The notes: generated from the letters alone by a model not told the origin. Shown: positions 1 through 63,422, counted from the first letter of the stretch. The stretch is 64,000 nucleotides of DNA from an uncultured virus (IMG/VR IMGVR_UViG_3300025154_000091) (IMGVR_UViG_3300025154_000091), one strand, 5' to 3'. Translations and numbers: made by a program.

Positions 1-92
1 TTGCGCTCTCTAGATAGGAACTCATCTACTACGACCTCAACCATTCCGAAGAAGTCTTCACACAATTGCTTACGCTCAGTATCAGTTAAGAT
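1..92 (-). CDS. 5' fragment of the sigma-like gene (copy 1, cut by window edge)
   Basis: Identical to the 5' end of 61863-62393. Confidence 0.8.
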   Translation of the reverse strand, partial: MLTDTERKQLCEDFFGMVEVVVDEFLSRER

Positions 93-106
93 ATTGTTCT
101 CCTTAT
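1..106. repeat. Exact 106-bp copy of 62302-62407 (genome wrap-around point; unit length about 62,301 bp)
   Basis: Direct comparison; first mismatch at 107 vs 62408. Confidence 0.95.
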
Positions 107-232
107 CTTTAGCACTACATATTCAGAAGATCCTGTCACAAAGTCGAACAAGTAATTATCTAATGGTTGATGACAGAAGTGCAGGTTGCCATAACCTCGT
201 CCCCCAACATATAAGATATAATAGAATCTCAT
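86..232 (-). CDS. LK[VI]RR-tail mini-protein, 48 aa
   Basis: Hand translation: MRFYYILYVGG...EYVVLKIRRTIS*. Confidence 0.75.
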   Translation of the reverse strand: MRFYYILYVGGRGYGNLHFCHQPLDNYLFDFVTGSSEYVVLKIRRTIS

Positions 233-267
233 ATCACTAAGGCTCTATTTATTATATAGTATCTCAT
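229..267 (-). CDS. 12-codon coupling mini-ORF containing a promoter-like motif
   Basis: MRYYIINRALVI*; overlaps both neighbours; conserved at 62679-62717. Confidence 0.45.
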   Translation of the reverse strand: MRYYIINRALVI

Positions 268-428
268 CACCTGATCTTCCTCCGAATCTTTAAGATAGTA
301 TAGTACTCCCTGCCCTCAGGAGATTTAATATAATGAGTAGTTGCAGTATCACTATAACGAGACCTATATAGGAACATATTCCTAGACCTATATCTATTTG
401 CTTCAGTCTCTAACAAGAATAAGTTCAT
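267..428 (-). CDS. LK[VI]RR-tail mini-protein, 53 aa
   Basis: MNLFLLETE...YYTILKIRRKIR*; TGATG overlap with polymerase stop. Confidence 0.75.
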   Translation of the reverse strand: MNLFLLETEANRYRSRNMFLYRSRYSDTATTHYIKSPEGREYYTILKIRRKIR

Positions 429-1513
429 CAATGTACCTCCGCCCAAGTCATTCCTACTTTCACATCAGCATCTATAGGGGTGATCAAGTTCAACTGACCT
501 TGTACCATATTGGCCCCAAGCTTAATGATTCTCGATGCTTCCTCCACATGTTCTGGCAGGCACCTGTAAGCATATTCATCATGATAGCAGATCATTTGTC
601 TACAGTATAAGCCAGTACCTTCAAGCATCTTATTAACATTAATACCCCACATCTTAAAGATGAGAGCAGCAGTCCCTTGGATGGCAGAGTTTAGCAACTT
701 ATACTCCTGCCTAATCTGCATCTTCCTTCCATCAAGACCTACAATGTACTTGTTCTTTTTATAAAACTTAGTTAGATAGTCTACAAGCATCTTCACTCCG
801 AGATTACCAGACCAAAAAGCTTCAATATATACTTCAGCTTCTTCTATTGTGCATCCAAGAATACTAGCAAGCTTAGGTGCTCTAGCTCCAAAATAGATTG
901 CATATTGAAAAGATTTCGCAATGTTTCTAGTACTTTGGATGAGGTCGGCATTGTATTGATGGAGATCTGGAACAGAACTTATCACCCTCCAATATTCTCC
1001 ACCATCAAACAGAGATGCCCAATGTGCTGTGACTCTCGCCTCTATCTGAGCAAGATCAGCACCTATCATTATGTATGGTGGCCACACCCTAAAGAGTGAT
1101 CTCATCTCCTTGCCATAGATAACTTTAGGATCAGCTTTCGGTACGTTGCAAATCGCACCAGCGTGGGTTGTCCTACCTGTTGGAGTATTACATGGCATCC
1201 CTTCAGCAGCTACACGTCCATCATCTCTTACCTTAGAGAGTATACCTTTATTCTCAGGATCCTTTAGGTTCTCGATGGTTCTCCTTCTATGTACAAGGAC
1301 ATTCCTTCGAGCAACTAACTGACCTAGCTCACCTTTGATAGAGCTGAACGAATCTTCAGTGAGCTTCGGGGATGTTATCTCTTTAGTCTTCTTATTTATA
1401 TTCCACTGAGTAGGGATCCACCCTACTGATAATAGGTAGGATTTCACTTGTTCGTGGCTATTCAAATTCAGGTCCATGTATTTTATCTTACAATACGGAC
1501 CTCTTATATTCAT
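428..1513 (-). CDS. DNA polymerase family A, polymerase half of a split gene
   Basis: Motif A ADLAQIEAR, motif B AKSFQYAIYFG, motif C YHDE. Confidence 0.95.
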   Translation of the reverse strand: MNIRGPYCKIKYMDLNLNSHEQVKSYLLSVGWIPTQWNINKKTKEITSPKLTEDSFSSIKGELGQLVARRNVLVHRRRTIENLKDPENKGILSKVRDDGRVAAEGMPCNTPTGRTTHAGAICNVPKADPKVIYGKEMRSLFRVWPPYIMIGADLAQIEARVTAHWASLFDGGEYWRVISSVPDLHQYNADLIQSTRNIAKSFQYAIYFGARAPKLASILGCTIEEAEVYIEAFWSGNLGVKMLVDYLTKFYKKNKYIVGLDGRKMQIRQEYKLLNSAIQGTAALIFKMWGINVNKMLEGTGLYCRQMICYHDEYAYRCLPEHVEEASRIIKLGANMVQGQLNLITPIDADVKVGMTWAEVH

Positions 1514-2074
1514 TTATAATTCTCCTTTTAAATATGAAATTGCAGATGATAAAATAGAAACATCATCATTAGCATGACCTACTAGTACGTTGCAGCTATT
1601 ACATAACAACCCTCTTATATTACCAGTTAGATGGTTGTGATCAACAGAATAACTTCTTTTAGAGTCTGGAGTAACTAGATCACATCCACAAATAGCACAA
1701 GCACCTTTCTGAATATTCATCATATCCATTAGAGAATCTTCAGATACTTTATACTTATACTTTAATTGGTAAAATCTCGACCTATCTGGGTTATCCTTCT
1801 GATATCTTGCATTTGCTTCGCTCAGCTTCTCTTTATTAGATTGATAATAAAGTTTATGATACTCCTTAGACTTATCCTTATTACTCTCCCTATACTCTTT
1901 TTGCTTTTCTAAAACCTTACCCTTGTTAGCATCCCTATAAGCCTTCACCCTCATAGATTCACAAGATTTGCATATACATCTCAGAACATCTTTCCCACTC
2001 TTACTAGTACGGACTTTATAAAAGTACTCTGATGTTGCTGGATATTCTGATCCACATTTTTTACAAATCTTCAT
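1514..2074 (-). CDS. Endonuclease VII-type HNH homing endonuclease
   Basis: CAICG...VDHNHLTGNIRGLLCNSCN; N-terminal CxxC. Confidence 0.9.
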   Translation of the reverse strand: MKICKKCGSEYPATSEYFYKVRTSKSGKDVLRCICKSCESMRVKAYRDANKGKVLEKQKEYRESNKDKSKEYHKLYYQSNKEKLSEANARYQKDNPDRSRFYQLKYKYKVSEDSLMDMMNIQKGACAICGCDLVTPDSKRSYSVDHNHLTGNIRGLLCNSCNVLVGHANDDVSILSSAISYLKGEL

Positions 2075-2115
2075 AGGTCCCTCCTAAAGGTTAAGTATGT
2101 AATGTTTTATTACAA

Positions 2116-2131
2116 CTATAACCTATATAGT
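2116..2131 (-). promoter_or_regulatory. ACTATATAG-N3-ATAG promoter-like motif upstream of the HNH gene
   Basis: ACTATATAGGTTATAG on the minus strand; motif recurs upstream of other transcription units. Confidence 0.65.
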
Positions 2132-2173
2132 TAATAGGAACCTGATCTTACAGTATGGTCCACGAATATTCAT
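2123..2173 (-). pseudogene. Remnant of the original polymerase 5' end
   Basis: MNIRGPYCKIRFLLTI*; first 10 aa identical to the polymerase start at 1513 but with different codons. Confidence 0.85.
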
Positions 2174-2176
2174 GTC

Positions 2177-2308
2177 CTATAAGGTTCTCCTCACTTTAAG
2201 TAGAGTATTCTGTCCGGGGAACTGTGCAGCTACACTACAATTAATAAGGATGGCTCTATTATGAGTAGTCCCACAACCATGCCACCCATGTCTTATGTAA
2301 AACTTCAT
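2177..2308 (-). CDS. LK[VI]RR-tail mini-protein, 43 aa
   Basis: MKFYIRHGW...HNRAIL...TLLKVRRTL*. Confidence 0.75.
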   Translation of the reverse strand: MKFYIRHGWHGCGTTHNRAILINCSVAAQFPGQNTLLKVRRTL

Positions 2309-2442
2309 AGTGTTCTCCTCACCTTTAGCACTATAAAGGTTGTTGGTGGAGGTCCGTAGTGTTCTGATAGAACTACAATGTTTCTATTGTATCTGCACAA
2401 CTGACTACAATTTTTCCACCCCTCTATACAGAAGACTCTCAT
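2305..2442 (-). CDS. LK[VI]RR-tail mini-protein, 45 aa
   Basis: MRVFCIEGW...YNRNIVV...IVLKVRRTL*. Confidence 0.75.
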   Translation of the reverse strand: MRVFCIEGWKNCSQLCRYNRNIVVLSEHYGPPPTTFIVLKVRRTL

Positions 2443-2627
2443 AGCACCCTCTTAACCTTTAAAAAGACTCCATGATTAGGGGCTATGATCCAACTCTTAT
2501 AGTGTACACTACTCTGATCTTCTGGGAACTTAATAAAATCCCTACAGAAACTATACATCCACTCGTTCCACCCAGGAGATAGTTCATGGGTTGTTTGATT
2601 ATACTCAAGTATCAGTAAGTATCTCAA
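2439..2627 (-). CDS. LK[VI]RR-tail mini-protein, 62 aa
   Basis: MRYLLILEY...VFLKVKRVL*. Confidence 0.75.
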   Translation of the reverse strand: MRYLLILEYNQTTHELSPGWNEWMYSFCRDFIKFPEDQSSVHYKSWIIAPNHGVFLKVKRVL

Positions 2628-3342
2628 TAGTTTCCTCTTGGTTTATCCACTTCTTTGTGGCTTCATTATATGTACCATCCTTCTTGTAAGGCATGGTCCC
2701 TTTCTCAATATTACCTACACCCTTTATCCTCATAGGACTCTTATCATACAAGAGTGTATCTAGCTGAGCAATTTCTTCATCTAATCGTACCAATAGATCC
2801 TTAGCCAACTCAACATCTATATCTACACCTTCAAGTTCTTGAGCTGCTCGATACATTGCGAAGTCTTGCTCTATGTTAAGAGATGTAATCCAGTTCCAAC
2901 TCTGGCAATACCTTTCTACTAGGTACTCATACACCATCTCGTTTATCTCAACATCCTCTGAGCACCTATGTAACATATCCTCAGAGAACACTGACCAATC
3001 CTCATGCACTGGTTTACTTCTTTTGAACTGCTCTCCGTATGACTCAAGAGAATGGCCCCCGAATCGTTCGGGGTTAAATAGCTTGGACATACAGAGAGTG
3101 TCCTTAAGCTTCTTGTGTGTGAATGTTGGATATAACTTCTTGATAGCAGGTATATCAAATCCACAGATGTTGTGACCGACCAACTGGTCAGCACTACTGA
3201 GAAGCTGAAGGCCCTCCTCTATTTGGTGTGGTCTAAACTTGAAGACCTCTTTGGTCTTGAGATCTTTAGCTACAATACAATGGATCTTAGTTATCTCATA
3301 GAGAAATCCATCTCCCTCAATATCTACAACGTATCTAGACAA
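2605..3342 (-). CDS. 3'-5' exonuclease half of the split family A DNA polymerase
   Basis: ExoI DIEGD, ExoII GHNICGFD, ExoIII-like RCSEDV; resembles T7 gp5 N-terminus. Confidence 0.92.
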   Translation of the reverse strand: MSRYVVDIEGDGFLYEITKIHCIVAKDLKTKEVFKFRPHQIEEGLQLLSSADQLVGHNICGFDIPAIKKLYPTFTHKKLKDTLCMSKLFNPERFGGHSLESYGEQFKRSKPVHEDWSVFSEDMLHRCSEDVEINEMVYEYLVERYCQSWNWITSLNIEQDFAMYRAAQELEGVDIDVELAKDLLVRLDEEIAQLDTLLYDKSPMRIKGVGNIEKGTMPYKKDGTYNEATKKWINQEETIEILTDT

Positions 3343-3472
3343 CTCTCCTCACCTTTAGGACTGTGTATCCCTCCTCAAATGTTAGGTAACAAACAGGACA
3401 ACCCATAGTAATTAATCTTCTACTATAACCAACACTCCAATAACAGTTCCCACGTAGAATCACGAAGACCAC
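3335..3472 (-). CDS. LK[VI]RR-tail mini-protein, 45 aa (GTG start)
   Basis: MVFVILRGNCYW...YSRRLI...YTVLKVRRVV*. Confidence 0.7.
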   Translation of the reverse strand: MVFVILRGNCYWSVGYSRRLITMGCPVCYLTFEEGYTVLKVRRVV

Positions 3473-3618
3473 TATAACTTTCTCTTAACCTTTAGGTTGA
3501 TATAATAGTCTCTCGGCTTTTTAAATTGTCTCCATATATAGAAACTTCTCACAGACATATCTCCCCATCCATAACCATCAGAATCTCTAACAGCTATAGT
3601 AAACCACACATGATTCAT
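3472..3618 (-). CDS. LK[VI]RR-tail mini-protein, 48 aa
   Basis: MNHVWFTIAV...YYINLKVKRKL*. Confidence 0.75.
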   Translation of the reverse strand: MNHVWFTIAVRDSDGYGWGDMSVRSFYIWRQFKKPRDYYINLKVKRKL

Positions 3619-3821
3619 CAATACCTCCGTCTTATTTGTAGCTCCTTCATCACCTCATAGGGAGGACTACTCACTCTCCAACGAATCTCATGAGGAGCGC
3701 CCTCCATCTCTATGGCTCTGAGATAATCAGCATTAGTATCCTCTCTAGCAAATGATCTACGATTTCTAGAGGTCCAGTCTGGGTCTTCCCTAAATGAATT
3801 ATACACAACCCAGAATCTCAC
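3618..3821 (-). CDS. LK[VI]RR-tail mini-protein, 67 aa
   Basis: MRFWVVY...RNRRSF...KELQIRRRY*. Confidence 0.75.
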   Translation of the reverse strand: MRFWVVYNSFREDPDWTSRNRRSFAREDTNADYLRAIEMEGAPHEIRWRVSSPPYEVMKELQIRRRY

Positions 3822-4048
3822 AGCCTCCTCCTGACCTTTAGAGGAATGAGTCTATCTACTGGTATGAATCCTCCAGATATCACGCCAAACCATTGAGCAA
3901 AGGATAACCCGTAGAATTCTGGAAGTTCATCATCTTCTTCATAGTCCTCTAGATCTATCTCCTCTTCCCTATAGAACATACCAGTCCATTGTTCAGGTGT
4001 AGCTGTTCCATAATCTAGATGCTTACATAGATAGAAATTAAAACTCAT
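3818..4048 (-). CDS. LK[VI]RR-tail mini-protein, 76 aa
   Basis: MSFNFYL...IPLKVRRRL*. Confidence 0.75.
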   Translation of the reverse strand: MSFNFYLCKHLDYGTATPEQWTGMFYREEEIDLEDYEEDDELPEFYGLSFAQWFGVISGGFIPVDRLIPLKVRRRL

Positions 4049-4730
4049 CGTCGCAGAACTCCTCCTCTAGTACTCCAGTTTCTTTATTGTACCTGAGAGG
4101 TATGTGTCCTGTGTTACCACCAAGTCTATCCTTTATGATAGATAATTTACACTTGTTCCTCTCTTCCAATGTGTCAGCTAACTGGTCCCTTGAGAGACCC
4201 CATAGCGCAGTAGAGTACTTCCATTGTGCCCTACTTCCCGAGAACTGTGAGCCATATACTTCACCACCAGCGCCATGATCCTTACCACTTGGAGGATTGT
4301 TCAAATGGTTAACACTAAAGAACGTCAGCCCCTGTTCTGTTCTAAACCTTCTCATATCTCTCATAACTTGACCCAAAGCCTGATTAGCTTCGGATGCAGA
4401 TAAATGTTCCACCAATGCAGATAGTGGGTCAATAAAGAATACCCTAATACCTTTGCTTGCAAAGTATCGTATATTATCCTTGACCTCTTCCCAATCCTCT
4501 GTGAGACCATCATAAAAATGAACCTTCCCCTCTAGAGTTGCACCTATTCTCCTCGCCTCCTCTACATCATAATCACAATCAGGTTTATGAATAGGCTTGT
4601 TCATTATGCTACCTATAATCTTCTTTAACGAGCCCTTTGCCTTCTCCTCTATATCAAATACAGCTATCTGCCTGTTGTGTACAAACATTAAGTGTTGTTG
4701 TATCTGCCTTACTAGTGTACTTTTACCTGT
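4038..4730 (-). CDS. Primase-helicase exon 2 (DnaB-like helicase)
   Basis: Starts TGKST (end of Walker A); FFIDPL Walker B; FSGS and KDR motifs. Confidence 0.92.
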   Translation of the reverse strand, partial: TGKSTLVRQIQQHLMFVHNRQIAVFDIEEKAKGSLKKIIGSIMNKPIHKPDCDYDVEEARRIGATLEGKVHFYDGLTEDWEEVKDNIRYFASKGIRVFFIDPLSALVEHLSASEANQALGQVMRDMRRFRTEQGLTFFSVNHLNNPPSGKDHGAGGEVYGSQFSGSRAQWKYSTALWGLSRDQLADTLEERNKCKLSIIKDRLGGNTGHIPLRYNKETGVLEEEFCDDEF

Positions 4731-4873
4731 CGCTTGTGTTACGAGGTGCTCGATTCCAGTACCTCTCTCAAGGTTTCCCATGAGGCCAGACTATATCATC
4801 ATCTTTTCAGATGCTATGCGCTTCGGACCCTCTTGAGTCCTACTCCCTCTCGGGATAGTCGTTACACTTTCTA

Positions 4874-5407
4874 CTACCAAGAGTATCTACAACTAACATG
4901 CTTCCAGTTTTGGCGACTTCTTATAGAGTAGTATAGCCTGAATGATAAGTTATCAAAAGAGCTAAGGATATCATCTCTACTAACCCTATTAGATATCATA
5001 TAACAAATAGTATCAACATCTTCATCTGACAGGATAGAGTTATGAATCTTCTCTCCCAGGCGAATGCGCCTTTTTCCAGATGCAAATGAATGGCATACAT
5101 TCTCGGAAGGAGATACCCACTCCAGATTAGAGACACAATTGTTACTCTTTATACCGTCTATATGATTAACCTCTTCTCCATCTTTATGATCTGGATTAAA
5201 AGTTTCCATAACTAATCTGTGAACTTGGTAAGTCTTCCTAAACCTCTCATACTGAAGAACAACAAGAAGATAACCCTGTCTATGCCTTCCAGGTTTTAAG
5301 ATTCTAGGAACTTTACCGTGGGTTGACATAACTCTTCCACAATCTGACACTTGATACTGGCCACCAAAACCTTCAACATGTTTCCAAACTTCCATCGCAT
5401 CCTCCAT
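4874..5407 (-). CDS. Intron-encoded NUMOD4-HNH homing endonuclease
   Basis: EVWKHVEGF..YQVSDCGRV; VHRLV; VNHIDGIKSNNCVSNLEW. Confidence 0.92.
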   Translation of the reverse strand: MEDAMEVWKHVEGFGGQYQVSDCGRVMSTHGKVPRILKPGRHRQGYLLVVLQYERFRKTYQVHRLVMETFNPDHKDGEEVNHIDGIKSNNCVSNLEWVSPSENVCHSFASGKRRIRLGEKIHNSILSDEDVDTICYMISNRVSRDDILSSFDNLSFRLYYSIRSRQNWKHVSCRYSW

Positions 5408-5431
5408 AGATTATTTGTATATTACATTCAA

Positions 5432-5447
5432 CTATAATCTATATAGT
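5432..5447 (-). promoter_or_regulatory. ACTATATAG-N3-ATAG motif upstream of the intron ORF
   Basis: ACTATATAGATTATAG on the minus strand. Confidence 0.65.
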
Positions 5448-5562
5448 ATGCAACACTCTGATAATAGCTTAGCTCGGGATTACCATATCTTAATAGACTT
5501 AGGCTTCCCCCGAATTCACATAGTTATTCGATGAGCATCTCTACTCAAAGGGGCAATTATTT

Positions 5563-6492
5563 ACCCGGTCCAGCCCCTATCGAAATTATCTCTCCCTCTT
5601 CCTCCTTAAGGCCATACGTAAGCTTCGTAAGCCTCTCGAAGGGGTAAGATAAGCCCCACGGTACAGGTTTAATAGTATCGGCCAAGATATCACCAACAGA
5701 TATAATATTACTAGGGCGATATTCTCTAGCGTTGAAGTAAGCATTGATGAACTCCTTCTGCTTTCCTTTTACCAGCATATCACTGGCATCTTTCTCTGAG
5801 ATGACCAAGACCCTAGCCCTCTCACCTATGACAGGTGCATACTTAGCCACAGCTGCCCTGCCAGCAGCATCCATATCAGTAGCTATGATGATCTCTTCAA
5901 AGCCCTTGAAGAACTCAAGACTCTCAGTCACCGTAGCCAATGAGGACTCTTCACCCCTTGGTAGAGACACTACTGCAGGTTCTACCTCAGGATACCTAGT
6001 CTTCAGCATCTCATAGGCAGCACACATATCCTCTTCACCACCAGTGATAAGCAACTTTCTGCCTGACATAGGACAGCAGTGGAGTCCTGATAGGTCAGGT
6101 ATCTTTCCCTTCTGATCTCCAATACTTGAGAACTTCTTAGGAAGTAATCTCTTCTTATATCCTATAAACTTACCGAGATGTGTCTCAGGGTAATAGATAG
6201 CTACTGGAATACCTGTAGCCTCTGAGAGCTCTGTTCGGATCTTGAAGTGCTTGTGTGTCTCAGCACTTATAAGTCTATCGGGATTACCGTAATAAGGAAG
6301 TCTCTTTATTTCATCTAACTCCATCTCTCCTCCTTTTTTAGAAGCATCACACACCTCTCCGTCTCTTTCGTAGTATGGCGGATGATAAGGTTTTAGGCAA
6401 GCTCGTGTTACACCGTCCTTCATCAACCATAGATGATCAGAGTTTGAATCATGCCCGAGCGACTTGCACACCTTACATTGGCGATTCTTCAT
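5563..6492 (-). CDS. Primase-helicase exon 1 (zinc-binding and TOPRIM primase)
   Basis: N-terminal CxxC; ITGGEED and DMD TOPRIM motifs; ends GAGPG; spliced product is 540 aa. Confidence 0.92.
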
Positions 6493-7120
6493 ATGATTCT
6501 AAATACTTAGCAGCTTTAAGGCAAGTATCTTTAGAGTCTTTTAAGAACCCTATACCAGAGTTACAAGAATTACATAACAACCCTCGGGCTTTTCCAGTAT
6601 CATGGTCATGATCTATAGAGAACATCTCAATAAAATCTATACCACATATAGCACATTTCCCAACTTGAGAGATTATCATACCCTCTAACCACTGCTCAGT
6701 TATATTGAAGATCTTAAGTCTTCGTCTGAAGAGAGTTTCGTTATAACCTTCGGTATCCTTATAAACTTCTCTATTTCTTATTATTCTATCTGCATTCTCC
6801 TCTCTATAGATAGCATCGTACTCTCTTTTCCATTCTGCATAACCCGGATCTGATCTCTTCCAAAGCGCATGGCACCTCTTAGAACAAAACTTAGTTCTTT
6901 TAGGCCCCCTCTTAGCTTGTATAATAACCTCTCCGCATATACAACATATCCCAGTTGTAGCTGTCTTGCATAGATCAACACACTCCTCTCCAGCTCTTCT
7001 AGCAAACTCAGCCTCTTCCTTATCCTTATAAGATCCTAGGTTTACACAACCAAGACTAGATCTTATAGATGCTTTCCATCTTTTCCTTGCCTTATTCCAA
7101 TGAACACCTTTCATAATCAT
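6473..7120 (-). CDS. AP2-like plus endonuclease VII-type homing endonuclease
   Basis: KGVHWNKARKRWKA..NLGSY (AP2-like); IDHDHDTGKARGLLCNSCN. Confidence 0.88.
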   Translation of the reverse strand: MIMKGVHWNKARKRWKASIRSSLGCVNLGSYKDKEEAEFARRAGEECVDLCKTATTGICCICGEVIIQAKRGPKRTKFCSKRCHALWKRSDPGYAEWKREYDAIYREENADRIIRNREVYKDTEGYNETLFRRRLKIFNITEQWLEGMIISQVGKCAICGIDFIEMFSIDHDHDTGKARGLLCNSCNSGIGFLKDSKDTCLKAAKYLESYEESPM

Positions 7121-7156
7121 CCCTCCAGTTGAATTAAAATATAAACCCTTTAAGGT

Positions 7157-7165
7157 CTATATAGT
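7157..7165 (-). promoter_or_regulatory. ACTATATAG motif upstream of the endonuclease
   Basis: About 37 nt before the ORF start. Confidence 0.55.
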
Positions 7166-7200
7166 AATCACGTTACTGAAGTGATAATTATGGGGATCAG

Positions 7201-7245
7201 TTACACATAAAACCCCCTACATTCAGGACATGGGCGATTGCTCAC
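7201..7245 (-). pseudogene. Remnant of the original primase 5' end
   Basis: GTG start, SNRPCPECRG.. vs current MKNRQCKVCK; SD AAGGAG upstream. Confidence 0.7.
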
Positions 7246-7370
7246 ATTCTCCTTTTCACCTTCAATAGTATAATATTAGGACTACCATTTATTCCACAAA
7301 TAATCCTCCTATGATTTCCAGGATACCACCAATCATTTAAGTGGTTGGATAAGATACAAAACCTTTTCAT
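7242..7370 (-). CDS. LK[VI]RR-tail mini-protein, 42 aa
   Basis: MKRFCIL...WWYPGNHRRII...ILLKVKRRM*. Confidence 0.75.
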   Translation of the reverse strand: MKRFCILSNHLNDWWYPGNHRRIICGINGSPNIILLKVKRRM

Positions 7371-7503
7371 AGATGCCTCTTAATCTTCAGTGCAATATAT
7401 GCCCTACACCCTTAGCCGAATAGCACCTCAACCTTCTACTCAAAGAGGGTGGCCAGTATCCGTCAGCTATATCCTTAGCCCATAGTATACAGAAGTTACT
7501 CAT
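7367..7503 (-). pseudogene. Frameshifted LK[VI]RR-tail mini-gene
   Basis: MSNFCILW...SLSRRL, tail YIALKIKRHL* in another frame; 137 nt, one short of in-frame. Confidence 0.65.
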
Positions 7504-7646
7504 AGCCTTTTCTTAACCTTTAGGATTATATACATCTCAGTATCATCTGAGATATCTTCATCCTCAAACATCACCCTTCTGGAATTGTAACTCCACCACC
7601 TTGAAGGTTCTGATGCACACCAAAGGATGATGAATAGGCCACTCAA
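7500..7646 (-). CDS. LK[VI]RR-tail mini-protein, 48 aa (TTG start)
   Basis: MSGLFIILW...WWSYNSRRV...YIILKVKKRL*. Confidence 0.7.
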   Translation of the reverse strand: MSGLFIILWCASEPSRWWSYNSRRVMFEDEDISDDTEMYIILKVKKRL

Positions 7647-7822
7647 TATTTTCTCCTAATCTTCAATTCCTTTAGGTTCAAGTACAGGCTAGAGTGTCTT
7701 CCATCACAGAAGGAATATGCAATATCACTTCTCGGATCCTTCTGCCTATAGATCATACCAATCTTCCAGTACAAGAAATCCATTAGATCAGCACCTGCTC
7801 TGTACCTATAGAAGAATCTCAC
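7643..7822 (-). CDS. LK[VI]RR-tail mini-protein, 59 aa (GTG start; track ORF over-extended)
   Basis: MRFFYRY...KELKIRRKY*. Confidence 0.75.
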   Translation of the reverse strand: MRFFYRYRAGADLMDFLYWKIGMIYRQKDPRSDIAYSFCDGRHSSLYLNLKELKIRRKY

Positions 7823-7956
7823 AACTTCCTCCTCACTCTTAAGCGTGTACAGTTTGTAATGTCTGTACTCACCTGGTATGCCCTCATGCATCTGCACATT
7901 GACCAATGCCAGAAGGTAGGGTTATCTACATCATATAAGAAGCAATAGATTCTCAT
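7819..7956 (-). CDS. LK[VI]RR-tail mini-protein, 45 aa
   Basis: MRIYCFLYDVDNPTFW...TRLRVRRKL*. Confidence 0.75.
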   Translation of the reverse strand: MRIYCFLYDVDNPTFWHWSMCRCMRAYQVSTDITNCTRLRVRRKL

Positions 7957-8102
7957 AGCTTCCTCTTAATTTTTAAGAACCTATAGTAGCATCTATCACC
8001 ATCTCTTATAGTCGTAGTATGTTTATAATGATCTATGTTTCTTCCATAGAACGGTATCCAAAATTCAGGATCATCTATATCATACAATAAAACAAAGTAC
8101 AT
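7953..8102 (-). CDS. LK[VI]RR-tail mini-protein, 49 aa
   Basis: MYFVLLYDIDDPEFW...YRFLKIKRKL*. Confidence 0.75.
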   Translation of the reverse strand: MYFVLLYDIDDPEFWIPFYGRNIDHYKHTTTIRDGDRCYYRFLKIKRKL

Positions 8103-8132
8103 ATCATCTCCACCACTATAGGTTCTTAAGAA

Positions 8133-9068
8133 CTACTGCATCATATGTCCGTAGTCTCTCCAGGCCTCGTCATCAGCCTGAGTTTTGAGTGCATCTTCGG
8201 CTGCCTTACGAGACGCTGCTGCTTTCTCCCTATTAGCTTTGATATTAGCTTGGGTGAGGTAAGCTGAGATAGTTGTCTTCATCCTGTTATGGATAGCTCC
8301 AGCTCTCTCAAGAGACTTCTTACACTCATCACAAATGATCATGATATCATCAGCAACACTATCCTGATAGGCGTTCATATCTTTGATCTGATGAATCTCA
8401 TTACAGTACTCACACATATCCCTTGTGTAGGCATTGATACTCCATGCTTCGGTGTTCGGCCTAGTTACTGGGAGGTTGTATGTCTTAGCACTATAGTACG
8501 TTTGAGTATAAATCTTCCTCTCCTTATAGGAATCATTACTCATCCAACACTTACCAAACCAATGACCCTTCTTCTTATTGTATATAGTGCAGTCACCCTC
8601 GATGTTCAGTACTGCCAGCTTAGATGCACCTATGAAGTCTTCAATAAGAGTAGCAATTGCACTATTGTACATCCACCCTTCAGGAAGTTCCCGAAGGATC
8701 TCTCTCTTGAACATTCGAGTATCTGACATAGTAGCATGTCGGGATACGCCACTGATGATTCCATTATGAATAAACACAGTATCATTATCAATCATAAAGG
8801 GATGACAGTTCGCTATATCCTTCTCACCATGAGTCTTGATTCTGAAGTGGATCAAGAATGGAGAGTCATTAGCTATACGAGTAGCCCTAAGGTACTGCTT
8901 ATAGAACGGCTCGAAGCTCATGTTCTTGTACATCTTAATCCTTTTGACACCCAGATGATCAGTATTAATATACGCAAAGCCAGCCCCATCCGGGTTATTA
9001 TTAAAGCAATTCTTCAACAGAACTTCACTAAGGAGCTCACCAGCTGGCTTGAAAATCGCAATACACAT
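8133..9068 (-). CDS. Class II (Ntn) glutamine amidotransferase
   Basis: N-terminal MC, NPDGAG, HFRIKTHG, NCHPF, HNG, SDT. Confidence 0.9.
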   Translation of the reverse strand: MCIAIFKPAGELLSEVLLKNCFNNNPDGAGFAYINTDHLGVKRIKMYKNMSFEPFYKQYLRATRIANDSPFLIHFRIKTHGEKDIANCHPFMIDNDTVFIHNGIISGVSRHATMSDTRMFKREILRELPEGWMYNSAIATLIEDFIGASKLAVLNIEGDCTIYNKKKGHWFGKCWMSNDSYKERKIYTQTYYSAKTYNLPVTRPNTEAWSINAYTRDMCEYCNEIHQIKDMNAYQDSVADDIMIICDECKKSLERAGAIHNRMKTTISAYLTQANIKANREKAAASRKAAEDALKTQADDEAWRDYGHMMQ

Positions 9069-9069
9069 A

Positions 9070-9218
9070 TTATATTCTCCTCTTTATCTTTAGCACTTTA
9101 TAGTAACCAACTTCCGGTACACACCTTGAGCAGCAGAGGATGAACCATATATATACTCATCCTCTTCTCCACTCCTGTCTCTAAAAGCAAAGTGTGTATG
9201 ATGTTTAATATCTTCCAT
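9070..9218 (-). pseudogene. Probable frameshifted LK[VI]RR-tail mini-gene
   Basis: Tail YYKVLKIKRRI* is one base out of frame with ATG at 9218 (149 nt). Confidence 0.5.
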
Positions 9219-9232
9219 ACAGTTATAACAGC

Positions 9233-11176
9233 TTATCGTCCATTATACTTCTGGACGAATGAGCTCCCATTAGGATAGATCTTGCTATTGCTCTCAATAA
9301 AATTCTTGAAGGCTGCGAGATCCTTAGAGAGATGGATAGGTACTTCCTTCTGGAAGGTGATCAAGGCATGAAGGAACTCTACCTTACTACGCAGCTCGAA
9401 CTCCTTAGTACAGCCAGCAAACAACCTGAACTCTACTGTGGTCCTGTTGGTCAGGTTGACCATGGCACGACGCTCAGTATTACCAGACTTACTATCCCTC
9501 AGGTGCTTAGAGGGTTTACTCTTCAGCTTAGCACAGTAACCATTGAAGCTACGACCAGCTATGTACGTGGTGAAGGTAGGGTTGGAGTGCAGAAAATTAA
9601 TAACCTTATACAGATGAACCTCAGAGATGAAAGAGTCGCGACCTATATGGATATGAAGGCCACAACTATCACTCTTCCTAATACCTTCAGGAAGAAGAGG
9701 ACCAAGATCCATTTTATGAAAGTACATCAGAGACATCGGTTGAGTGACAACCTCATATCCACTACCACTAATAGATCCATCACTCTTCGCTACAACTACT
9801 GTAGGGTCGTATACAGTGTACATCTCAGCCAATCTCTTATTCATCTTACTACTATCGGATGAGAACGTACATTCATTCTCAAACCCGAAGAAGATATTAC
9901 CACGCTTGATCTCCTTCTCCTTGTTATAGTTGAAGAAGACTCGAGGTTTATGACTATAGTTATAGATACCCATACCACCACACACCCTACAGTTGTGCCT
10001 CTCATCCTTAATCCTACCGCAACTGCTGCAGGAGTTGGTGACGTAAACCTTCTTGCAGATCTCGCACATATCTCCTGATCCAGAGGAGAGGGTGGAACAA
10101 CTGGAGCACTCCTTACCTGAAGCACACCGAGAGCACACTGTATGCACCCTCATAGTTCCTTTCACATACTTCTTAACCTTCGAGACACACTCCTTCTGGC
10201 AGCAATCGCAGGTGAAGAGAGTCTTTGTAGCACAGGAATCACACATAGTGTTCCTAACCATGCTTCCAGAGTCATCCAGATATTCTCGGAGCCTAATATG
10301 TGGGTGCTTGGTGTTACATACCGCGCAAGTCTCGAAAAAATCCCAACAACGAGGACAGTACTTCTTCGGAGATCCCTGATCTGCTGTGTAGCTATAGTTC
10401 TTACCACAATGCTCACACTGTTCGATCTCATAGAGCTTGAAGGCATTCTTCTTAGCCTCGAAGCATTCTTTACATACAGACTGTCCATACTTTCTGAAGA
10501 TACCAGCTCTGCGCATACCCTCAAGAGAATTGGCTGAGATGATATCATCTTTCTTCTTATAAGTGCTGCAACAACCACACAGCTTATAGTTCTTGGTAAG
10601 GCAGGTAGAACATATCTTCCTTCCATTAACATCTTTGATAGCATTGGAGGGCTTCTGAGTTCCACAATCCTCACAGACTGCAAAGTCAGTCATGCAGCTA
10701 CGACAATAGTGATCTCCGTTTCCAGTGTGAGTAGTCTCAGATGCAAGGACTGCATGCTGACAACCAGAACACACCTTCAGAAGTGCATAGCACCTCTCAC
10801 AATACGGACCAATCTCTACCTCAGGATAGTCCTCATTATAAAGGACAACGCGAAAGTTAGGATCGGTGATTTCAGCATGACAATTCAAACAAGGGCAGGG
10901 AGTAGGCATAGTAATAGTTTCCTTTTTGGTTAAGTAAGTGTATTCTCCGGGATAAACGTGCGCATCTGACCCATCAGTTCCGTAACATTGTATAACTTCA
11001 TCATCTTCAAGATTATAATCTTCATCTCCAATACCATCTCTCCAACCGTCGTCGTTCCAACTACACGGAACTATGTTCCTGACAATATCGAATTGGTATG
11101 GTGGGAAGTTGTATTCTCTACCAGATTCACCAACAATCAGTAGTATATCACCAAAATCTGGTATTCTATTACTCAT
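9233..11176 (-). CDS. Putative amidoligase (COOH-NH2 ligase family) with a long CxxC array
   Basis: FGFENE, DGS..GYEVVT, CGLHIH, TVEFR; about 18 CxxC motifs upstream. Confidence 0.85.
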   Translation of the reverse strand: MSNRIPDFGDILLIVGESGREYNFPPYQFDIVRNIVPCSWNDDGWRDGIGDEDYNLEDDEVIQCYGTDGSDAHVYPGEYTYLTKKETITMPTPCPCLNCHAEITDPNFRVVLYNEDYPEVEIGPYCERCYALLKVCSGCQHAVLASETTHTGNGDHYCRSCMTDFAVCEDCGTQKPSNAIKDVNGRKICSTCLTKNYKLCGCCSTYKKKDDIISANSLEGMRRAGIFRKYGQSVCKECFEAKKNAFKLYEIEQCEHCGKNYSYTADQGSPKKYCPRCWDFFETCAVCNTKHPHIRLREYLDDSGSMVRNTMCDSCATKTLFTCDCCQKECVSKVKKYVKGTMRVHTVCSRCASGKECSSCSTLSSGSGDMCEICKKVYVTNSCSSCGRIKDERHNCRVCGGMGIYNYSHKPRVFFNYNKEKEIKRGNIFFGFENECTFSSDSSKMNKRLAEMYTVYDPTVVVAKSDGSISGSGYEVVTQPMSLMYFHKMDLGPLLPEGIRKSDSCGLHIHIGRDSFISEVHLYKVINFLHSNPTFTTYIAGRSFNGYCAKLKSKPSKHLRDSKSGNTERRAMVNLTNRTTVEFRLFAGCTKEFELRSKVEFLHALITFQKEVPIHLSKDLAAFKNFIESNSKIYPNGSSFVQKYNGR

Positions 11177-11430
11177 AGCACTCTCTTCACTCTCAGAGGT
11201 ACAGCATTATCTAATCGGATTCCCCAATCGTTGTGGTGATCTGAGTATCTGTAGAATCTTAATGAAGATACTGTGCTAAAACCAGGATCATCATCATCGT
11301 CATCACCGTCTAATAGATGAGATACACACACCCTTCTAGATAAATAATTCATATTCTCCACCCATCTCCACCCTTCAGGGGAATTAGGAGTAGATGAATC
11401 TTTCCAAGAGTTTCCTATGAAATAGAGCAC
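11173..11430 (-). CDS. LK[VI]RR-tail mini-protein, 85 aa
   Basis: YFIGNSW...MNYLSRRV...VPLRVKRVL*. Confidence 0.75.
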   Translation of the reverse strand: MLYFIGNSWKDSSTPNSPEGWRWVENMNYLSRRVCVSHLLDGDDDDDDPGFSTVSSLRFYRYSDHHNDWGIRLDNAVPLRVKRVL

Positions 11431-11431
11431 A

Positions 11432-11647
11432 TTATATTCTCCTTTTTAATGTTAGTTTTATAGCCTCATCATAATCTACATACCAACTTCCGGATCTCTC
11501 TACAAAAGACACCTCATCGTCATCTAGATAAGAGGTAATCACCGCTCTAGATAAGTGGTTCATGCCTGGAACCCAAGATCCATCGTAGTAATCTTCTAGA
11601 TCTTCCTCCAACCAAGAGTTCCCTATAAAGTACTGTAGGGAGTCCAT
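11432..11647 (-). CDS. LK[VI]RR-tail mini-protein, 71 aa; tandem paralog of the previous gene
   Basis: YFIGNSW...MNHLSRAV...IKLTLKRRI*. Confidence 0.75.
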   Translation of the reverse strand: MDSLQYFIGNSWLEEDLEDYYDGSWVPGMNHLSRAVITSYLDDDEVSFVERSGSWYVDYDEAIKLTLKRRI

Positions 11648-11832
11648 TATATTACCCTAGCCAATCTCCCCTTATCGGTGATTACTTCAAGAGGTTTAAA
11701 CATCTTAGCCACCTCACCGTTCATGAGGTACAAAGTTCCAACAACCCCATGTACAGAGTCCTCAGCCGCTTTAGTCACTCCCTCCATCATTCTCTCAGAG
11801 AAGATGAGGTACTCACAGTACTTACAGTTCAT
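11647..11832 (-). CDS. Hypothetical protein
   Basis: Coupled ORF lacking the family tail. Confidence 0.6.
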   Translation of the reverse strand: MNCKYCEYLIFSERMMEGVTKAAEDSVHGVVGTLYLMNGEVAKMFKPLEVITDKGRLARVI

Positions 11833-12011
11833 ATCTTTCTCCTAATTTTAAAGATTGTAAATCTATAATGTTCATAGCCCTCTGATTGTACCCTACCACT
11901 GGACAGATTAAGTAATCTCACCTCTCTACTATCTCTATCGATAAAACAGAAGCTTTGTATGTAGAGATCTAAGGTGGTATCACAACTTTTGTATATAGCT
12001 ATCTCCCACAC
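11829..12011 (-). CDS. LK[VI]RR-tail mini-protein, 60 aa
   Basis: MWEIAIYK...FCFI...TIFKIRRKI*. Confidence 0.75.
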   Translation of the reverse strand: MWEIAIYKSCDTTLDLYIQSFCFIDRDSREVRLLNLSSGRVQSEGYEHYRFTIFKIRRKI

Positions 12012-12220
12012 TATAGCACCCTCCTCACCTTCAAGATAGTATAGAATCTCTCTAGGTCGTTCTTAGGGTAGATAGTATAATTCTCACAGAGTCCGTCTCC
12101 CGGTCTGTGATCCCAACCTCTAAACTTAACTTCAAGATTTTCTGTATTTATTAGGCAGAAGCACCCTTCAAAAATGTCAGTAGTACCTACACCGTACTTG
12201 TAGAAACTGAACTCCCACAT
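12011..12220 (-). CDS. LK[VI]RR-tail mini-protein, 69 aa; tandem paralog of the previous gene
   Basis: MWEFSFYK...FCLI...TILKVRRVL*. Confidence 0.75.
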   Translation of the reverse strand: MWEFSFYKYGVGTTDIFEGCFCLINTENLEVKFRGWDHRPGDGLCENYTIYPKNDLERFYTILKVRRVL

Positions 12221-13008
12221 TATTCATTAGCTGCCCTAATAACAGCTTCCACATAAGCCTCCAGCGTAGCACCTTCAAGTCCAGGAGCTGTGTTAATCTC
12301 GAATATCTTCACAGAGTTAGCGCTTAATGCAGCATCAACAGCACCAAACATAAGACCTAAAGCACCTACAGCAGCTATAGCAACTTGTTTTTCCTCATCT
12401 GGAATAGAGACTCCTTCACGGGCAAAAACCCACCCGTTTCCATGGGATCGCACATCATTGCTATAAGTGATTCCATCTTCAGCAAGACGCTCTTCACTCA
12501 TCTTCTTTTTCTGGGCAAAGGAGATAATCTCACTATTGAACACATGAATACGAACCTCTCTACGTCGAGGACATTTTCCAGTGTAGAGAGGTGCATCTAC
12601 CACCTCATCAACAGTATTAGCTACAACGATACCACGACCCTGAGAGGCCCGAATCAGAGTCCGACAATATACTGTAATGCCTGAAGCTGCCCACTCTTGG
12701 GCCTCCCTTTGATCAGTAGTAAACTTTGGAATATTATTTTCCATGCCAGACTCTTTCAGTTTCTGGAAGGTCTTAATCTTGTCACTCGCAATCTGAACTG
12801 CAAAGGGATCATTGATCATGTGGAACTGCGTATCAACAGATCTCCGTGAGTGGCAACCCCAGTTGAGGATGAGGTGATTGTTAGAACCCCTATAGGTGCT
12901 CCCCTCATACTTCAACCTTTTTACGTTAGCACCTCTCTCACGAAGAGCAGCAATAAGAGAGGTTACAGAGTCTGAAGGGCCGTAGGGGTTAATTCTTATG
13001 GGTCTCAT
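12220..13008 (-). CDS. ATP-grasp enzyme (RimK-like, phiEco32-type)
   Basis: LILNWG, ASDK, EVRIHVF, NGWVF, FGAVD, FEINTAPG. Confidence 0.9.
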   Translation of the reverse strand: MRPIRINPYGPSDSVTSLIAALRERGANVKRLKYEGSTYRGSNNHLILNWGCHSRRSVDTQFHMINDPFAVQIASDKIKTFQKLKESGMENNIPKFTTDQREAQEWAASGITVYCRTLIRASQGRGIVVANTVDEVVDAPLYTGKCPRRREVRIHVFNSEIISFAQKKKMSEERLAEDGITYSNDVRSHGNGWVFAREGVSIPDEEKQVAIAAVGALGLMFGAVDAALSANSVKIFEINTAPGLEGATLEAYVEAVIRAANE

Positions 13009-14033: not shown

Positions 14034-14181
14034 ATAATAGCACCTACAAGAGTTCAATTATGTGCTTGAAGACTTGTAGGTGCTATTATTACTATAGTAA
14101 GAACTAAGAATAAAATAAATAAACGAACCTATAGAGCTATATGTCTGTAAGCACCTATAAGATTAGATGGTGCTTACAGAC
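14034..14181. repeat. Two long inverted repeats (17-bp and 13-bp perfect arms), both containing AGCACC
   Basis: 14034-14050/14073-14089 and 14143-14155/14169-14181. Confidence 0.8.
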
Positions 14182-14353: not shown

Positions 14354-14917
14354 ATGGATGACCAAACTAAAAAAGAGAAAGCAGCTGCTTATTATAAAAC
14401 TTATAATGAGGTTCATAAGGAAGAAATAGCTGCACGTAGAAAGGTTTATAGAGAGGTTAATAGGGAGAAAATTTTAGAGAGTAAGAAATCATACAGAGAA
14501 TACAATAAGGAAGAAGTAGCTGCTAGAAAGAAAGAGTATAGGAGATTGAATAAAGAGAAGGTTGCTGAGGCGAGTAAAAAGTATCGTTTATCTAACCCTG
14601 AAAAGGTAAAAGCTTGGGAAAAAGAGTGGAGAGCTATCCCTACTAATGTTGTAAAATCTAGAGCTGGACAGATTAAAAGTAGATACGGTATTAGTATGGA
14701 AGATTTATCTAATATGCTTGACGAACAAAAAGGGTGCTGCAAGGTTTGTGGAGATAGTTTAATCTATCCAGACTCGAAAGTGGGGTATAGGATTGACCAT
14801 TGCCACACTACAGGAAAGGTTAGAGGCCTCCTTTGTCACAATTGCAACATAGCTCTAGGGCATCTTAAAGATAATATAGACACCCTAGAGCGTATGATTG
14901 ACTATCTCAAGGCTTAG
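14354..14917 (+). CDS. Endonuclease VII-type HNH endonuclease, antisense to its neighbours
   Basis: About 15-aa basic helical repeats; IDHCHTTGKVRGLLCHNCN; SD AAGGAG. Confidence 0.9.
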   Translation: MDDQTKKEKAAAYYKTYNEVHKEEIAARRKVYREVNREKILESKKSYREYNKEEVAARKKEYRRLNKEKVAEASKKYRLSNPEKVKAWEKEWRAIPTNVVKSRAGQIKSRYGISMEDLSNMLDEQKGCCKVCGDSLIYPDSKVGYRIDHCHTTGKVRGLLCHNCNIALGHLKDNIDTLERMIDYLKA

Positions 14918-28103: not shown

Positions 28104-29537
28104 ATGGCAAGTACTTATTACGACAGTGTAGGTAAAACAGTAAATGACGGGGATGTGATATACGCTGCTGATTTGAACACTATCAATTCTGCAGTAGATA
28201 CAGCCCTACAGCAGGTAGAGGTTGACATAAGCACTGTAGCAGTTAATCAGTCATTCTACTCAGACCTAGCTCAGAAGTGGGCTGAGAATACTGAAGATAC
28301 AGAAGTTGAGCCCGGGTCTTATTCAGCACTTCATTGGGCTGCTAAGTCTGAGGATCACGCTATTGATGCCTCAGCTCAGGTTGGTTTAGCTGCAGCTCAG
28401 GTTGGTTTAGCAACTACCCAAGCTGGTTTAGCAACCACTCAAGCTGGTATAGCTACTACCCAAGCTGGTATAGCTACTACACAGGCAGGCACTGCAACCA
28501 CTCAGGCTGGTATAGCTACTACACAGGCTGGTATAGCTACTACCAAAGCCGGGGAGGCTTCAGACAATGCTGCTGCTTCTCTAGCCTCAGAGGTTGCTGC
28601 AGAGGCATCAGCCCTTGAGGCAGCTACGTATATTAATGGAAAGATAGATTATGTTGTGGATGGGGATTTTAACTCGTGGTTGGACGGAACATCACACAGC
28701 ACTTCTGGATACGGATCAGCAACTATGTGGGGAATAGCGAAGACACTTTCTACCCTTACATTGAGCAGACAGGATTTTACTATCGGTCAGGTCGATGTGC
28801 CTGGAGGAAATACTTATTACGCACGTTCAGTAGTTTCTGACTCTGGAGGAATATCTTTTGCTGGTATATATAATATTATAGAGGGTGTTAAGACATTAGC
28901 CAATAAAGATATCACACTATCCTTCTATGCAAAAGCAGACGCAAGTAAACCTATGGGGTTCTACTTACTTCAGAGCTTTGGAACTGGAGGATCTAGTGGT
29001 GTATCTTTTGGGAAGACTCTCGTTAATCTAACAACATCTTGGACTAAATTTGACATAACGATAAACGCACCATCTATCTCTGGAAAGACTATTGCTGGTG
29101 GTAACGACGGCCTTTATATATATTTCATATTCGATGATTATGATGCAGCTCCCATAATCCCAGGAATGAGTGGGCAATCGGGGACTTTCGATATAGCTAG
29201 GGTTAGGCTAGTAGAAGGGAGTAGAGATGGTGACAGTATTCAGCACACTGTAGCAGAAGATGCTTTGATGGTTAGTAGATACTATCAAGTAGGATTTGGA
29301 AGTATATTTAGTGGCAATATAACTAATGGAAGTACTTATGCAGTGTCAACACCTTTCCAAGGCATTATGAGAGGGGTTCCAGAAATAACTGTAGCAAATG
29401 CTTTAAACTCCTCCTTTCCGGCAACCACTGGAATTATTACCGCTCATGGTAATAACTATGTAGAGAGTAGGGTGGCTAGTGCAACAGTATCCGCTGGATA
29501 CTATGGATCTACTTACAAACTAAACGCTAGGTTATAA
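28104..29537 (+). CDS. Tail fiber protein
   Basis: YSALHWA motif, heptad repeats, carbohydrate-binding-like C-terminus. Confidence 0.8.
   Translation: MASTYYDSVGKTVNDGDVIYAADLNTINSAVDTALQQVEVDISTVAVNQSFYSDLAQKWAENTEDTEVEPGSYSALHWAAKSEDHAIDASAQVGLAAAQVGLATTQAGLATTQAGIATTQAGIATTQAGTATTQAGIATTQAGIATTKAGEASDNAAASLASEVAAEASALEAATYINGKIDYVVDGDFNSWLDGTSHSTSGYGSATMWGIAKTLSTLTLSRQDFTIGQVDVPGGNTYYARSVVSDSGGISFAGIYNIIEGVKTLANKDITLSFYAKADASKPMGFYLLQSFGTGGSSGVSFGKTLVNLTTSWTKFDITINAPSISGKTIAGGNDGLYIYFIFDDYDAAPIIPGMSGQSGTFDIARVRLVEGSRDGDSIQHTVAEDALMVSRYYQVGFGSIFSGNITNGSTYAVSTPFQGIMRGVPEITVANALNSSFPATTGIITAHGNNYVESRVASATVSAGYYGSTYKLNARL
28374..28559 (+). repeat. About 9 imperfect 21-bp coding repeats (TQAGIAT)
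   Basis: Visible tandem units. Confidence 0.85.
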
Positions 29538-42527: not shown

Positions 42528-42716
42528 TACTAGGAGATAAGTAAGAACCTTACAGCACCTCTTAGTGCCTATAGTACTATAGAACTTATAGTTCATTTAT
42601 TTCATCTTATATAATACATATATAAGAACCTATTAGCACCTATAGAGCTTTAGCCCCTGTAGGGCTAGTAGTCTCTATACGGAGATAATTATTGTAACTT
42701 ACGAAAGGATTAACTA

Positions 42717-63360: not shown

Positions 63361-63399
63361 TTGAGTTTAGATTATAATACATTAGAGTATCCTTACGAA

Positions 63400-63415: not shown

Positions 63416-63422
63416 GTGATGA

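Follow-up and report, generated by a model that had tools for sequence, protein, structure and literature searches.

What keeps the same short peptide at the end of some twenty small, hypervariable proteins of a single phage? The question is raised by a 64,000-nucleotide (nt) stretch of DNA from an uncultured groundwater phage (IMG/VR IMGVR_UViG_3300025154_000091), called the window here at its full length, in which minus-strand open reading frames (ORFs) of 42–85 amino acids (aa) are interleaved with replication genes and share a C-terminal tail, L-K-[VI]-[KR]-R. A preliminary description of the window had taken these mini-genes for a modular effector library and the tail for a docking or targeting tag. 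We consider it probable that they form a clade-restricted, tandemly amplified family in which each gene is a self-contained translational cassette with a dual-coded tail, swapped between strains at a junction of about 30 nt. This reading draws on family membership, the geometry of coupling to downstream genes, codon-level constraints, purifying selection and insertions or deletions bounded by the junctions.

Tail-bearing ORFs were searched for with a regular expression in all six frames. Of the 25 ORFs matched, 22 are minus-strand ORFs at coordinates named in the preliminary description (every mini-gene of Table 1 except m11), and the remaining three, two plus-strand ORFs of 19–25 aa and one out-of-frame ORF at 61530, are probable chance matches. 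A 45-member profile (alignment A1) searched against the 1630 six-frame ORFs of the window returned 23 matches with an expect value (E) of at most 0.03, all of them minus-strand ORFs of the arrays, and the next match had an E of about 0.9. Twenty-one of the 23 had been among the training sequences; the frameshifted copies (7387–7503 and 9070–9156) had not. The family consists of 23 small minus-strand ORFs, 20 within 86–12220 and three within 62387–62878. The regular expression and the profile together thus recovered the roughly 20 mini-genes first described at 86–12220, including two broken copies: m11 is frameshifted, and m16 is intact in the strain variant contig L002, where it encodes a 55-aa CxxC...CxxC protein. 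Two entries had to be revised. Four mini-genes (m17, m18, m20 and m21) lie at 11173–12220, but the small gene among them lacks the tail. The three ORFs at 62387–62878, described as further mini-genes, are present but are no extra array: they are the second strain's allele of 86–428, because the window wraps around a genome unit of about 62.3 kb, with ends derived from two co-occurring strains. IMG/VR contig L001 is 100% identical to the window from 11513 down to 1 and then 99.5% identical from 62541 down to 52732, and window positions 62765–64000 are 100% identical to L002. Where the ends overlap (1–726 against 62302–63721), identities are 97%, 86% and 74%.

To assess selection, the window was compared with L002. 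Pooled over 11 orthologue pairs (568 codons), the ratio of nonsynonymous to synonymous substitution rates (dN/dS) was 0.26, against 0.04–0.10 for five neighbouring enzyme genes. By region, the ratio was 0.08 at the N-terminus, 0.30 in the middle (392 codons) and 0.36 in the tail, taken as the last nine codons. Information at the N-terminal codons follows a 3-nt period, falling to about 0 bits at third positions, and the reading frames are intact in 4–5 diverged lineages. Alignment A4 joins orthologues across lineages whose exonucleases are just 46–55% identical, and M1, R22, W48 and P54 are invariant in it. Judged from these alignments, the mini-ORFs behave as real, fast-evolving genes under purifying selection, and the earlier claim of a real, hypervariable family stands.

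It is very improbable, by comparison, that they are not genes at all but ORFs arisen by chance, or that a repeated element of the DNA, be it a promoter, a recombination site or an RNA structure, happens to read as protein. The conserved parts do coincide with gene junctions. A nucleotide-level signal is also suggested by the tail itself: the codon two before the tail Leu (tail position -2) has A at its first position in 38 of 47 tails, whichever amino acid it encodes, and the Leu codon is YTA in 33. Against such an element stand the dN/dS, the intact frames, and third positions that are free at the N-terminus and at the Val/Ile codon of the tail. A sigma-70 promoter hidden in the tail was rejected, as sigma-70-like matches numbered 25 against 37.2 expected and were not systematically sited in tails. 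A hairpin sequestering the Shine-Dalgarno sequence (SD) was likewise rejected: the consensus fold of the junction had an energy of -0.11 kcal/mol, which gives no conserved RNA structure.

At the protein level, an alignment of 33 members of archetype length (A3) displays the N-terminal strand M-[RK]-x-[FYW]-x-[ILV]-[ILV] and, in the first turn, a consensus Trp. No member departs from Leu in the tail, and at least 90% share the internal Arg as well as the Arg of the tail, whose consensus is L-K-V-K-R-x-L. The shared strand, internal motif and tail of the preliminary description are therefore all seen in A3. Aromatic residues make up 15% of the proteins; the body carries a charge of about 0 and the tail a mean charge of about +3.2. 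AlphaFold2 modelled m14 (33 sequences) with a mean predicted local distance difference test score (pLDDT) of 79 and strands at residues 3–6, 24–27 and 37–39, and the structured part stops at the tail Leu. The longer m08 subfamily (9 sequences) reached a pLDDT of 52.7, too weak for use. The family is probably all-beta: each protein would comprise an N-terminal strand, a Trp-containing turn, a near-invariant Arg opening the second strand, a variable loop and a last strand [YF]-x-x-L.

Searches for a known relative gave little. For a possible SH3-like small beta-barrel fold, the best VIA-align match was to a GINS B-domain (Z 2.7, root-mean-square deviation 2.9 over 38 residues) and the best Foldseek match in the PDB had an E of 6.6, neither of them informative; the ESM Atlas, searched with m14, returned no usable match. 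Among 22 mini-proteins compared with Pfam-A and PHROG, the best E was 0.055 and 0.083, respectively, and all matches fell short of the curated cut-offs. The family had initially gone unrecognised, and no characterised family was found for it in Pfam, PHROG, the PDB or the ESM Atlas.

We then analyzed the tail codon by codon. Fifty tails were examined, and 47 were kept after three that fell outside the regular expression had been dropped. Two residues separate the tail from the stop codon in 41 of the 47, three in five and one in a single case. The second codon position of both Leu and Val/Ile is T in all 47, and the third position of the Val/Ile codon is nearly free (0.2 bits). The codons that follow are AAG or AGG and then AGR, the tail Arg being AGR in 44 of 47 cases compared with 72% genome-wide. 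The YTA preference at Leu compares with 25% of Leu codons in large genes. Since exactly two residues precede the stop in most tails, the hexamer ARGAGR falls 5 nt upstream of a start codon overlapping the stop. Leu and Val/Ile are thus kept as hydrophobic residues, while the two basic residues and the spacing to the stop match an SD, its spacer and the overlap, which argues that the tail is dual-coded. The tail had been described as synonymously variable and under protein-level selection; the free Val/Ile wobble and the uniform second-position T agree with this, but the Leu codon is not freely synonymous. Two short ORFs of L083, a phage further removed than the sister lineage L059 discussed below, terminate in LKARRIL and MKGKRIL.

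The surroundings of the tail show the same geometry. Stop/start overlaps of -4 or -1 nt are found at most mini-gene junctions, with ARGAGR 5 nt upstream of the start and duplex energies with the anti-SD of -3.3 to -12.7 kcal/mol, as expected from the initial reading of the tail codons as the SD of the next ORF. Directly after a tail comes another mini-gene or the start of the exonuclease, amidoligase-like or amidotransferase gene; the m06 tail, for example, holds the SD of the exonuclease TTG start. The tails of m03 and m10 feed a 16-aa polymerase N-terminal stub and a 14-aa primase stub, both relics of HNH insertions. A start follows every tail, be it that of a gene, a stub or the 12-aa remnant MRYYIINRALVI, with the possible exception of m01/m22, beside which the start codon of the sigma-factor gene is uncertain. 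The idea that some tails are uncoupled, and thus purely peptide, was rejected, as it is this remnant and the two stubs that follow them.

These features suggest the following mechanism. A mini-gene would start on an overlap with the preceding stop (ATGA, GTGA or TAATG), and its last seven codons, L-K-[VI]-[KR]-R-x-hydrophobic, would, in frame, supply the next ORF with its SD (ARG AGR), a 5-nt spacer and the overlap of stop and start. That ORF would be either another mini-gene or a primase-helicase, exonuclease, polymerase, amidoligase-like or amidotransferase gene. Ribosome binding and termination-reinitiation would maintain the two basic residues and their spacing from the stop, and Leu and Val/Ile would be kept as hydrophobic residues. 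Translation of the downstream gene would then depend on the tail.

In a crude census of 105 genes, 63 had a downstream start to which they are coupled. Twenty of the 105 carry the tail, every one a family member, and it is absent from all 50 coupled genes outside the family. It is thus not a general by-product of coupling; a tail equally frequent on other coupled genes was what the preliminary description had named as refuting its claim. At positions -5 to -3, the 50 other genes have 14% K/R, 13% D/E and 10% G, whereas the family has 68% K/R and no D, E or G. The family-specific tail is one reason to keep in view the docking, targeting or turnover tag, in which one partner (a protease adaptor, a packaging or secretion factor, or a modifying enzyme) binds the tail, the bodies are an effector library and the SD is secondary. 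It would also fit a tag that Leu and Val/Ile are invariant in hydrophobic class, that AlphaFold2 puts the residues past Leu outside the fold, as for a free tail, and that the tail sits on possibly non-homologous bodies such as the zinc-ribbon orthologue of m16. In composition, the tail presumably resembles the basic-then-hydrophobic C-terminal ClpX motif (C-motif-2, MuA type), a likeness of composition only. We nevertheless hold the tag to be quite unlikely. By the tail-versus-middle comparison of dN/dS proposed at the outset, orthologues do not preserve the tail better than the middle, and its codons are biased at the nucleotide level with a spacing to the stop that equals the SD-to-start spacing. 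A start follows nearly every tail. The sister lineage L059 (exonuclease 46% identical) fills the same slots with mini-genes whose tail is L-K-R-K-E and in which AAGGAG or AGGAAA supplies the SD. Moreover, two phages with the same three enzymes lack the family (see below), and no candidate partner is known. The docking-tag and effector-library proposal found no supporting sign here and is in part accounted for by dual coding: the tail is not extra-conserved, its basic half coincides with the SD, and the L059 tail differs.

Several observations weigh against the cassette reading itself. The basic pair is never E or G in the 47 tails, although GAG and GGA codons would serve the SD equally; this constant basicity, which a tag would explain, is left unexplained by the need for an SD alone, and a peptide-level role of the positive charge is possible. 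The synonymous rate (dS) of the tail, 0.59, is not below that of the middle, 0.44, and RNA-level constraint is therefore modest. Nor are tail SDs significantly stronger than the other SDs of the genome (-7.8 against -6.3 kcal/mol, p = 0.11; 2 of 19 positions mis-set), and the claim of unusually strong tail SDs was accordingly dropped. As for the unity of the family, a tail-less profile of 19 divergent relatives placed family members as the top six matches in the window, yet at E of 4e-4 to 0.13, and missed the longer members; the zinc-ribbon member appears unrelated save for its tail. Some members may therefore be unrelated bodies with only the cassette ends in common. As for the function, gene position, size and turnover are all that suggests that the mini-proteins may be accessory binders of host or defence targets.

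The coupling allows another reading in which the peptides matter little. The mini-genes would be leader or adapter ORFs whose selected role is to meter ribosomes by termination-reinitiation onto replication genes with weak starts (TTG, GTG). A tail-bearing mini-gene does stand directly before nearly every core operon gene in the window and in the relatives L002, G003, L056 and L059; the exonuclease, primase and polymerase genes often begin with TTG or GTG; and the decayed copies m11 and m16 retain the tail nucleotides. We regard this reading as unlikely, however. One leader per gene would be enough, yet slots hold 1–7 cassettes, and the protein middle is under purifying selection. Some members are conserved as orthologues across the lineages of A4, and in the relative G002 the ORF directly upstream of the polymerase gene has no tail.

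Comparison of strains shows how the arrays change. The helicase-exonuclease slot holds seven mini-genes in L002 and four in the window, and the exonuclease-polymerase slot four and three, respectively. L002 has no m11, and it has mini-genes where the window has HNH genes. Only L059 has an empty slot, the one between its ATP-grasp and amidoligase genes; otherwise the slots are filled in every lineage. Homology between the window and L002 breaks at 12 internal points: eight are no more than 25 nt from a cassette junction, and the other four flank HNH insertions. L002 has a 370-nt insertion of two cassettes, and the 33-nt junction at window positions 3812–3844 aligns to each of its ends. The junction of about 30 nt common to all cassettes gives recombination homology, by which strains could acquire, lose or exchange whole cassettes while the replication genes are spared polar effects. 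In the relative G003, a 103-aa deaminase-like gene (L040:2693–3004) stands within the exonuclease-polymerase array, and slots therefore take unrelated cargo too.

A variation on the cassette reading makes the mini-genes selfish coupling cassettes, each with its own start context and the initiation region of the gene downstream, which spread by recombination at the junction of about 30 nt. They would be addictive, because primase-helicase, exonuclease and polymerase rely on the cassette tail as their ribosome-binding site, and, should similar arrays with different tails exist in other phages, would represent a general and undescribed route by which phage operons gain ORFan genes without polarity. 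We put this forward tentatively, as a minority possibility. The coordinates of the mini-genes and their neighbours are listed in Table 1.

Table 1. Mini-genes of the window and the genes around them (positions in nt of the window).
Feature	Coordinates	Strand	Remarks
m01, 48 aa	86..232	-	tail LKIRRTIS; upstream of sigma-factor gene
12-aa remnant ORF, MRYYIINRALVI and stop	229..267	-	joins m02 (TGATG overlap) to m01 (ATGA overlap)
m02, at most 53 aa	267..428	-	start uncertain; tail LKIRRKIR
m03	2177-2308	-	between exonuclease and polymerase genes
m04	2305-2442	-	between exonuclease and polymerase genes
m05	2439-2627	-	between exonuclease and polymerase genes
m06	3335-3472	-	between helicase and exonuclease
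m07	3472-3618	-	between helicase and exonuclease
m08	3618-3821	-	between helicase and exonuclease
m09	3818-4048	-	between helicase and exonuclease
m10	7242-7370	-	between amidotransferase and primase genes
m11	7367-7503	-	frameshifted; between amidotransferase and primase genes
m12	7500-7646	-	between amidotransferase and primase genes
m13	7643-7822	-	between amidotransferase and primase genes
m14	7819-7956	-	between amidotransferase and primase genes
m15	7953-8102	-	between amidotransferase and primase genes
m16, degraded zinc-ribbon-type mini-gene	9070..9218	-	tail keeps amidotransferase SD
m17	11173-11430	-	between RimK-like ATP-grasp and amidoligase-like genes
m18	11432-11647	-	between RimK-like ATP-grasp and amidoligase-like genes
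small gene without tail	11647-11832	-	inside array
m20	11829-12011	-	between RimK-like ATP-grasp and amidoligase-like genes
m21	12011-12220	-	between RimK-like ATP-grasp and amidoligase-like genes
m22	62387-62536	-	m22 to m24: m01 and m02 as present in the second strain, with one additional cassette
m23	62533-62682	-	see m22
m24	62717-62878	-	see m22
polymerase gene	428-1513		part of split T7-type DNA polymerase
HNH/EndoVII-type homing endonuclease gene	1514..2074	-	in cassette slot; absent in L002
polymerase N-terminal stub, 16 aa	2126-2173		follows m03 tail
exonuclease gene	2605-3342		part of split T7-type DNA polymerase
helicase gene	4038-4781		from large-ORF identification
HNH/EndoVII-type homing endonuclease gene	4874-5407		absent in L002
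primase gene	5557-6492		from large-ORF identification
HNH/EndoVII-type homing endonuclease gene	6473-7120		absent in L002
primase stub, 14 aa	7201-7245		follows m10 tail
class-II glutamine amidotransferase gene	8133-9068	-	start at 9068; Pfam
Amidoligase_2-like gene, 647 aa	9233-11176		Pfam
RimK-like ATP-grasp gene	12220-13008		Pfam
HNH/EndoVII-type gene	14354-14917		
HNH/EndoVII-type gene	54175-54756		
sigma-70 region-2 (Sigma70_r2) gene	61863-62366		Pfam
HNH/EndoVII-type gene	62878-63360		

The large ORFs identify the source as a tailed phage, with terminase, portal, major head, ribonucleotide reductase, ligase and dUTPase genes, and its T7-type DNA polymerase is split into separate exonuclease and polymerase genes. 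HNH genes interrupt both the polymerase and the primase-helicase gene, with duplicated N-terminal stubs as a remainder; the primase-helicase of L002 is one ORF of 536 aa. Three further HNH/EndoVII-type genes are listed in Table 1. The conserved N-terminus of the sigma factor (TD.ERK.LCE.FF) reaches upstream of the first canonical start of its gene, and at 62366–62390 the window has ATC TTA in frame where G002 has ATG, with no canonical start there. The genome unit is novel: megablast of window positions 1–12500 against phage records gave no match, and deposited phages are distant, with best tblastn identities below 40%.

To assess the distribution of the family, we searched 1.84 billion representative proteins with the profile. 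Nine matched at E of at most 1e-3; eight are proteins of 43–67 aa identical or nearly identical to clade members, and the ninth is a protein of 756 aa. Among 26 viral loci found via the exonuclease, matches were confined to those with an exonuclease at least 53% identical, plus one edge match (E 0.017), and among 80 metagenome loci (13,109 ORFs) to four loci of the same clade. By these sequence searches, the protein family is new and clade-restricted. Our literature searches turned up no earlier description of such tails, but the word searches were narrow and leave its absence unproven.

The ATP-grasp, amidoligase-like and amidotransferase genes form an operon (8133–13008) as in phiEco32-like phages, here with mini-genes interleaved. 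Kuravirus SGF2 and Aquaneticvirus APT65 have the same three genes, and no family member was found in them (best profile E 1.1 over 1338 ORFs). A link of the mini-proteins to these adjoining enzymes is hence unsupported. RimK substrates of the ribosomal protein S6 type have an acidic C-terminus (Glu-Glu) that the ligase extends; no such terminus was found on the mini-proteins, whose tails end basic and then in L, I, V, M or Y.

Elsewhere in the window, the 7-mer AGGTGCT occurs 66 times on both strands (for example at 14039–14156, 35863–35869 and 42554–42641), whereas dinucleotide shuffles gave 10.5 ± 3.1 and never more than 19. Longer forms of it, YAGGTGCTR or CTATAGGTGCTGTAGG, are frequent, and the palindrome CCTATAGG is found at 12 sites against 2.3 expected. 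The excess of AGGTGCT could be a DNA-level signal or odd codon-pair usage. A tail-fibre-like gene (28104–29537) contains a tandem array of at least nine 21-nt (7-aa) repeats at 28335–28586, and 35495–42508 encodes a 2337-aa structural-module protein with an LPD23 domain and an M78/IrrE-like peptidase domain.

Several known systems resemble the arrays in part. The internal proteins of T4 are diverse small proteins from a hypervariable locus with one N-terminal capsid-targeting sequence, which the prohead protease cleaves and whose role has been demonstrated. The mini-proteins are likewise diverse small phage proteins with one short shared terminal peptide, but theirs is C-terminal, overlaps an SD and belongs to a replication operon. 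T7-like phages carry small class II genes, for instance for host-takeover and anti-defence proteins, between replication genes. Here, too, small accessory genes stand among primase-helicase, exonuclease and polymerase genes of T7 type; the class II genes are not known to be related to one another, whereas about 20 of those in the window form one family with common ends.

Two further systems come close to the cassette junction. In termination-reinitiation pairs, stop and start overlap as ATGA or TGATG and the upstream ORF contains the SD (Huber et al., 2019, PMC6728339). The junctions resemble those pairs in their -4 or -1 nt overlaps and in an SD 5–10 nt upstream within the preceding coding region. 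They differ in that a single family uses one and the same in-frame solution, L-K-V/I-K/R-R-x-L, some 20 times in each genome, and in that coupling is here predicted. PeSL of T4-type phages are intergenic units of promoter and terminator that work at the level of transcription (Arbiol et al., 2010, PMC2839356). PeSL and the mini-gene arrays both place a short conserved expression signal beside non-essential ORFans, and in both the signal bounds insertions, deletions and replacements between close relatives, as seen here from the eight breakpoints at junctions and the 33-nt junction duplicated around the 370-nt insertion. The unit shared by the mini-genes is translational, unlike PeSL (SD, stop/start overlap and first codons), and lies within coding sequence. 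Because the junctions have neither a promoter nor a stem-loop, by the site counts and fold energy given above, the arrays are not of the PeSL kind as set out in that source.

About one in five genes of this phage belongs to one orphan family, apparently wired into the translation of its replication genes. The family offers natural scaffolds of about 45 residues with variable loops, whose targets are worth finding. It also carries a warning, as conserved C-terminal 'tags' of phage mini-proteins can be in-frame ribosome-binding sites. If the cassette model is true, it would provide a testable mechanism by which small accessory genes are added, swapped and discarded inside essential operons without breaking their expression.

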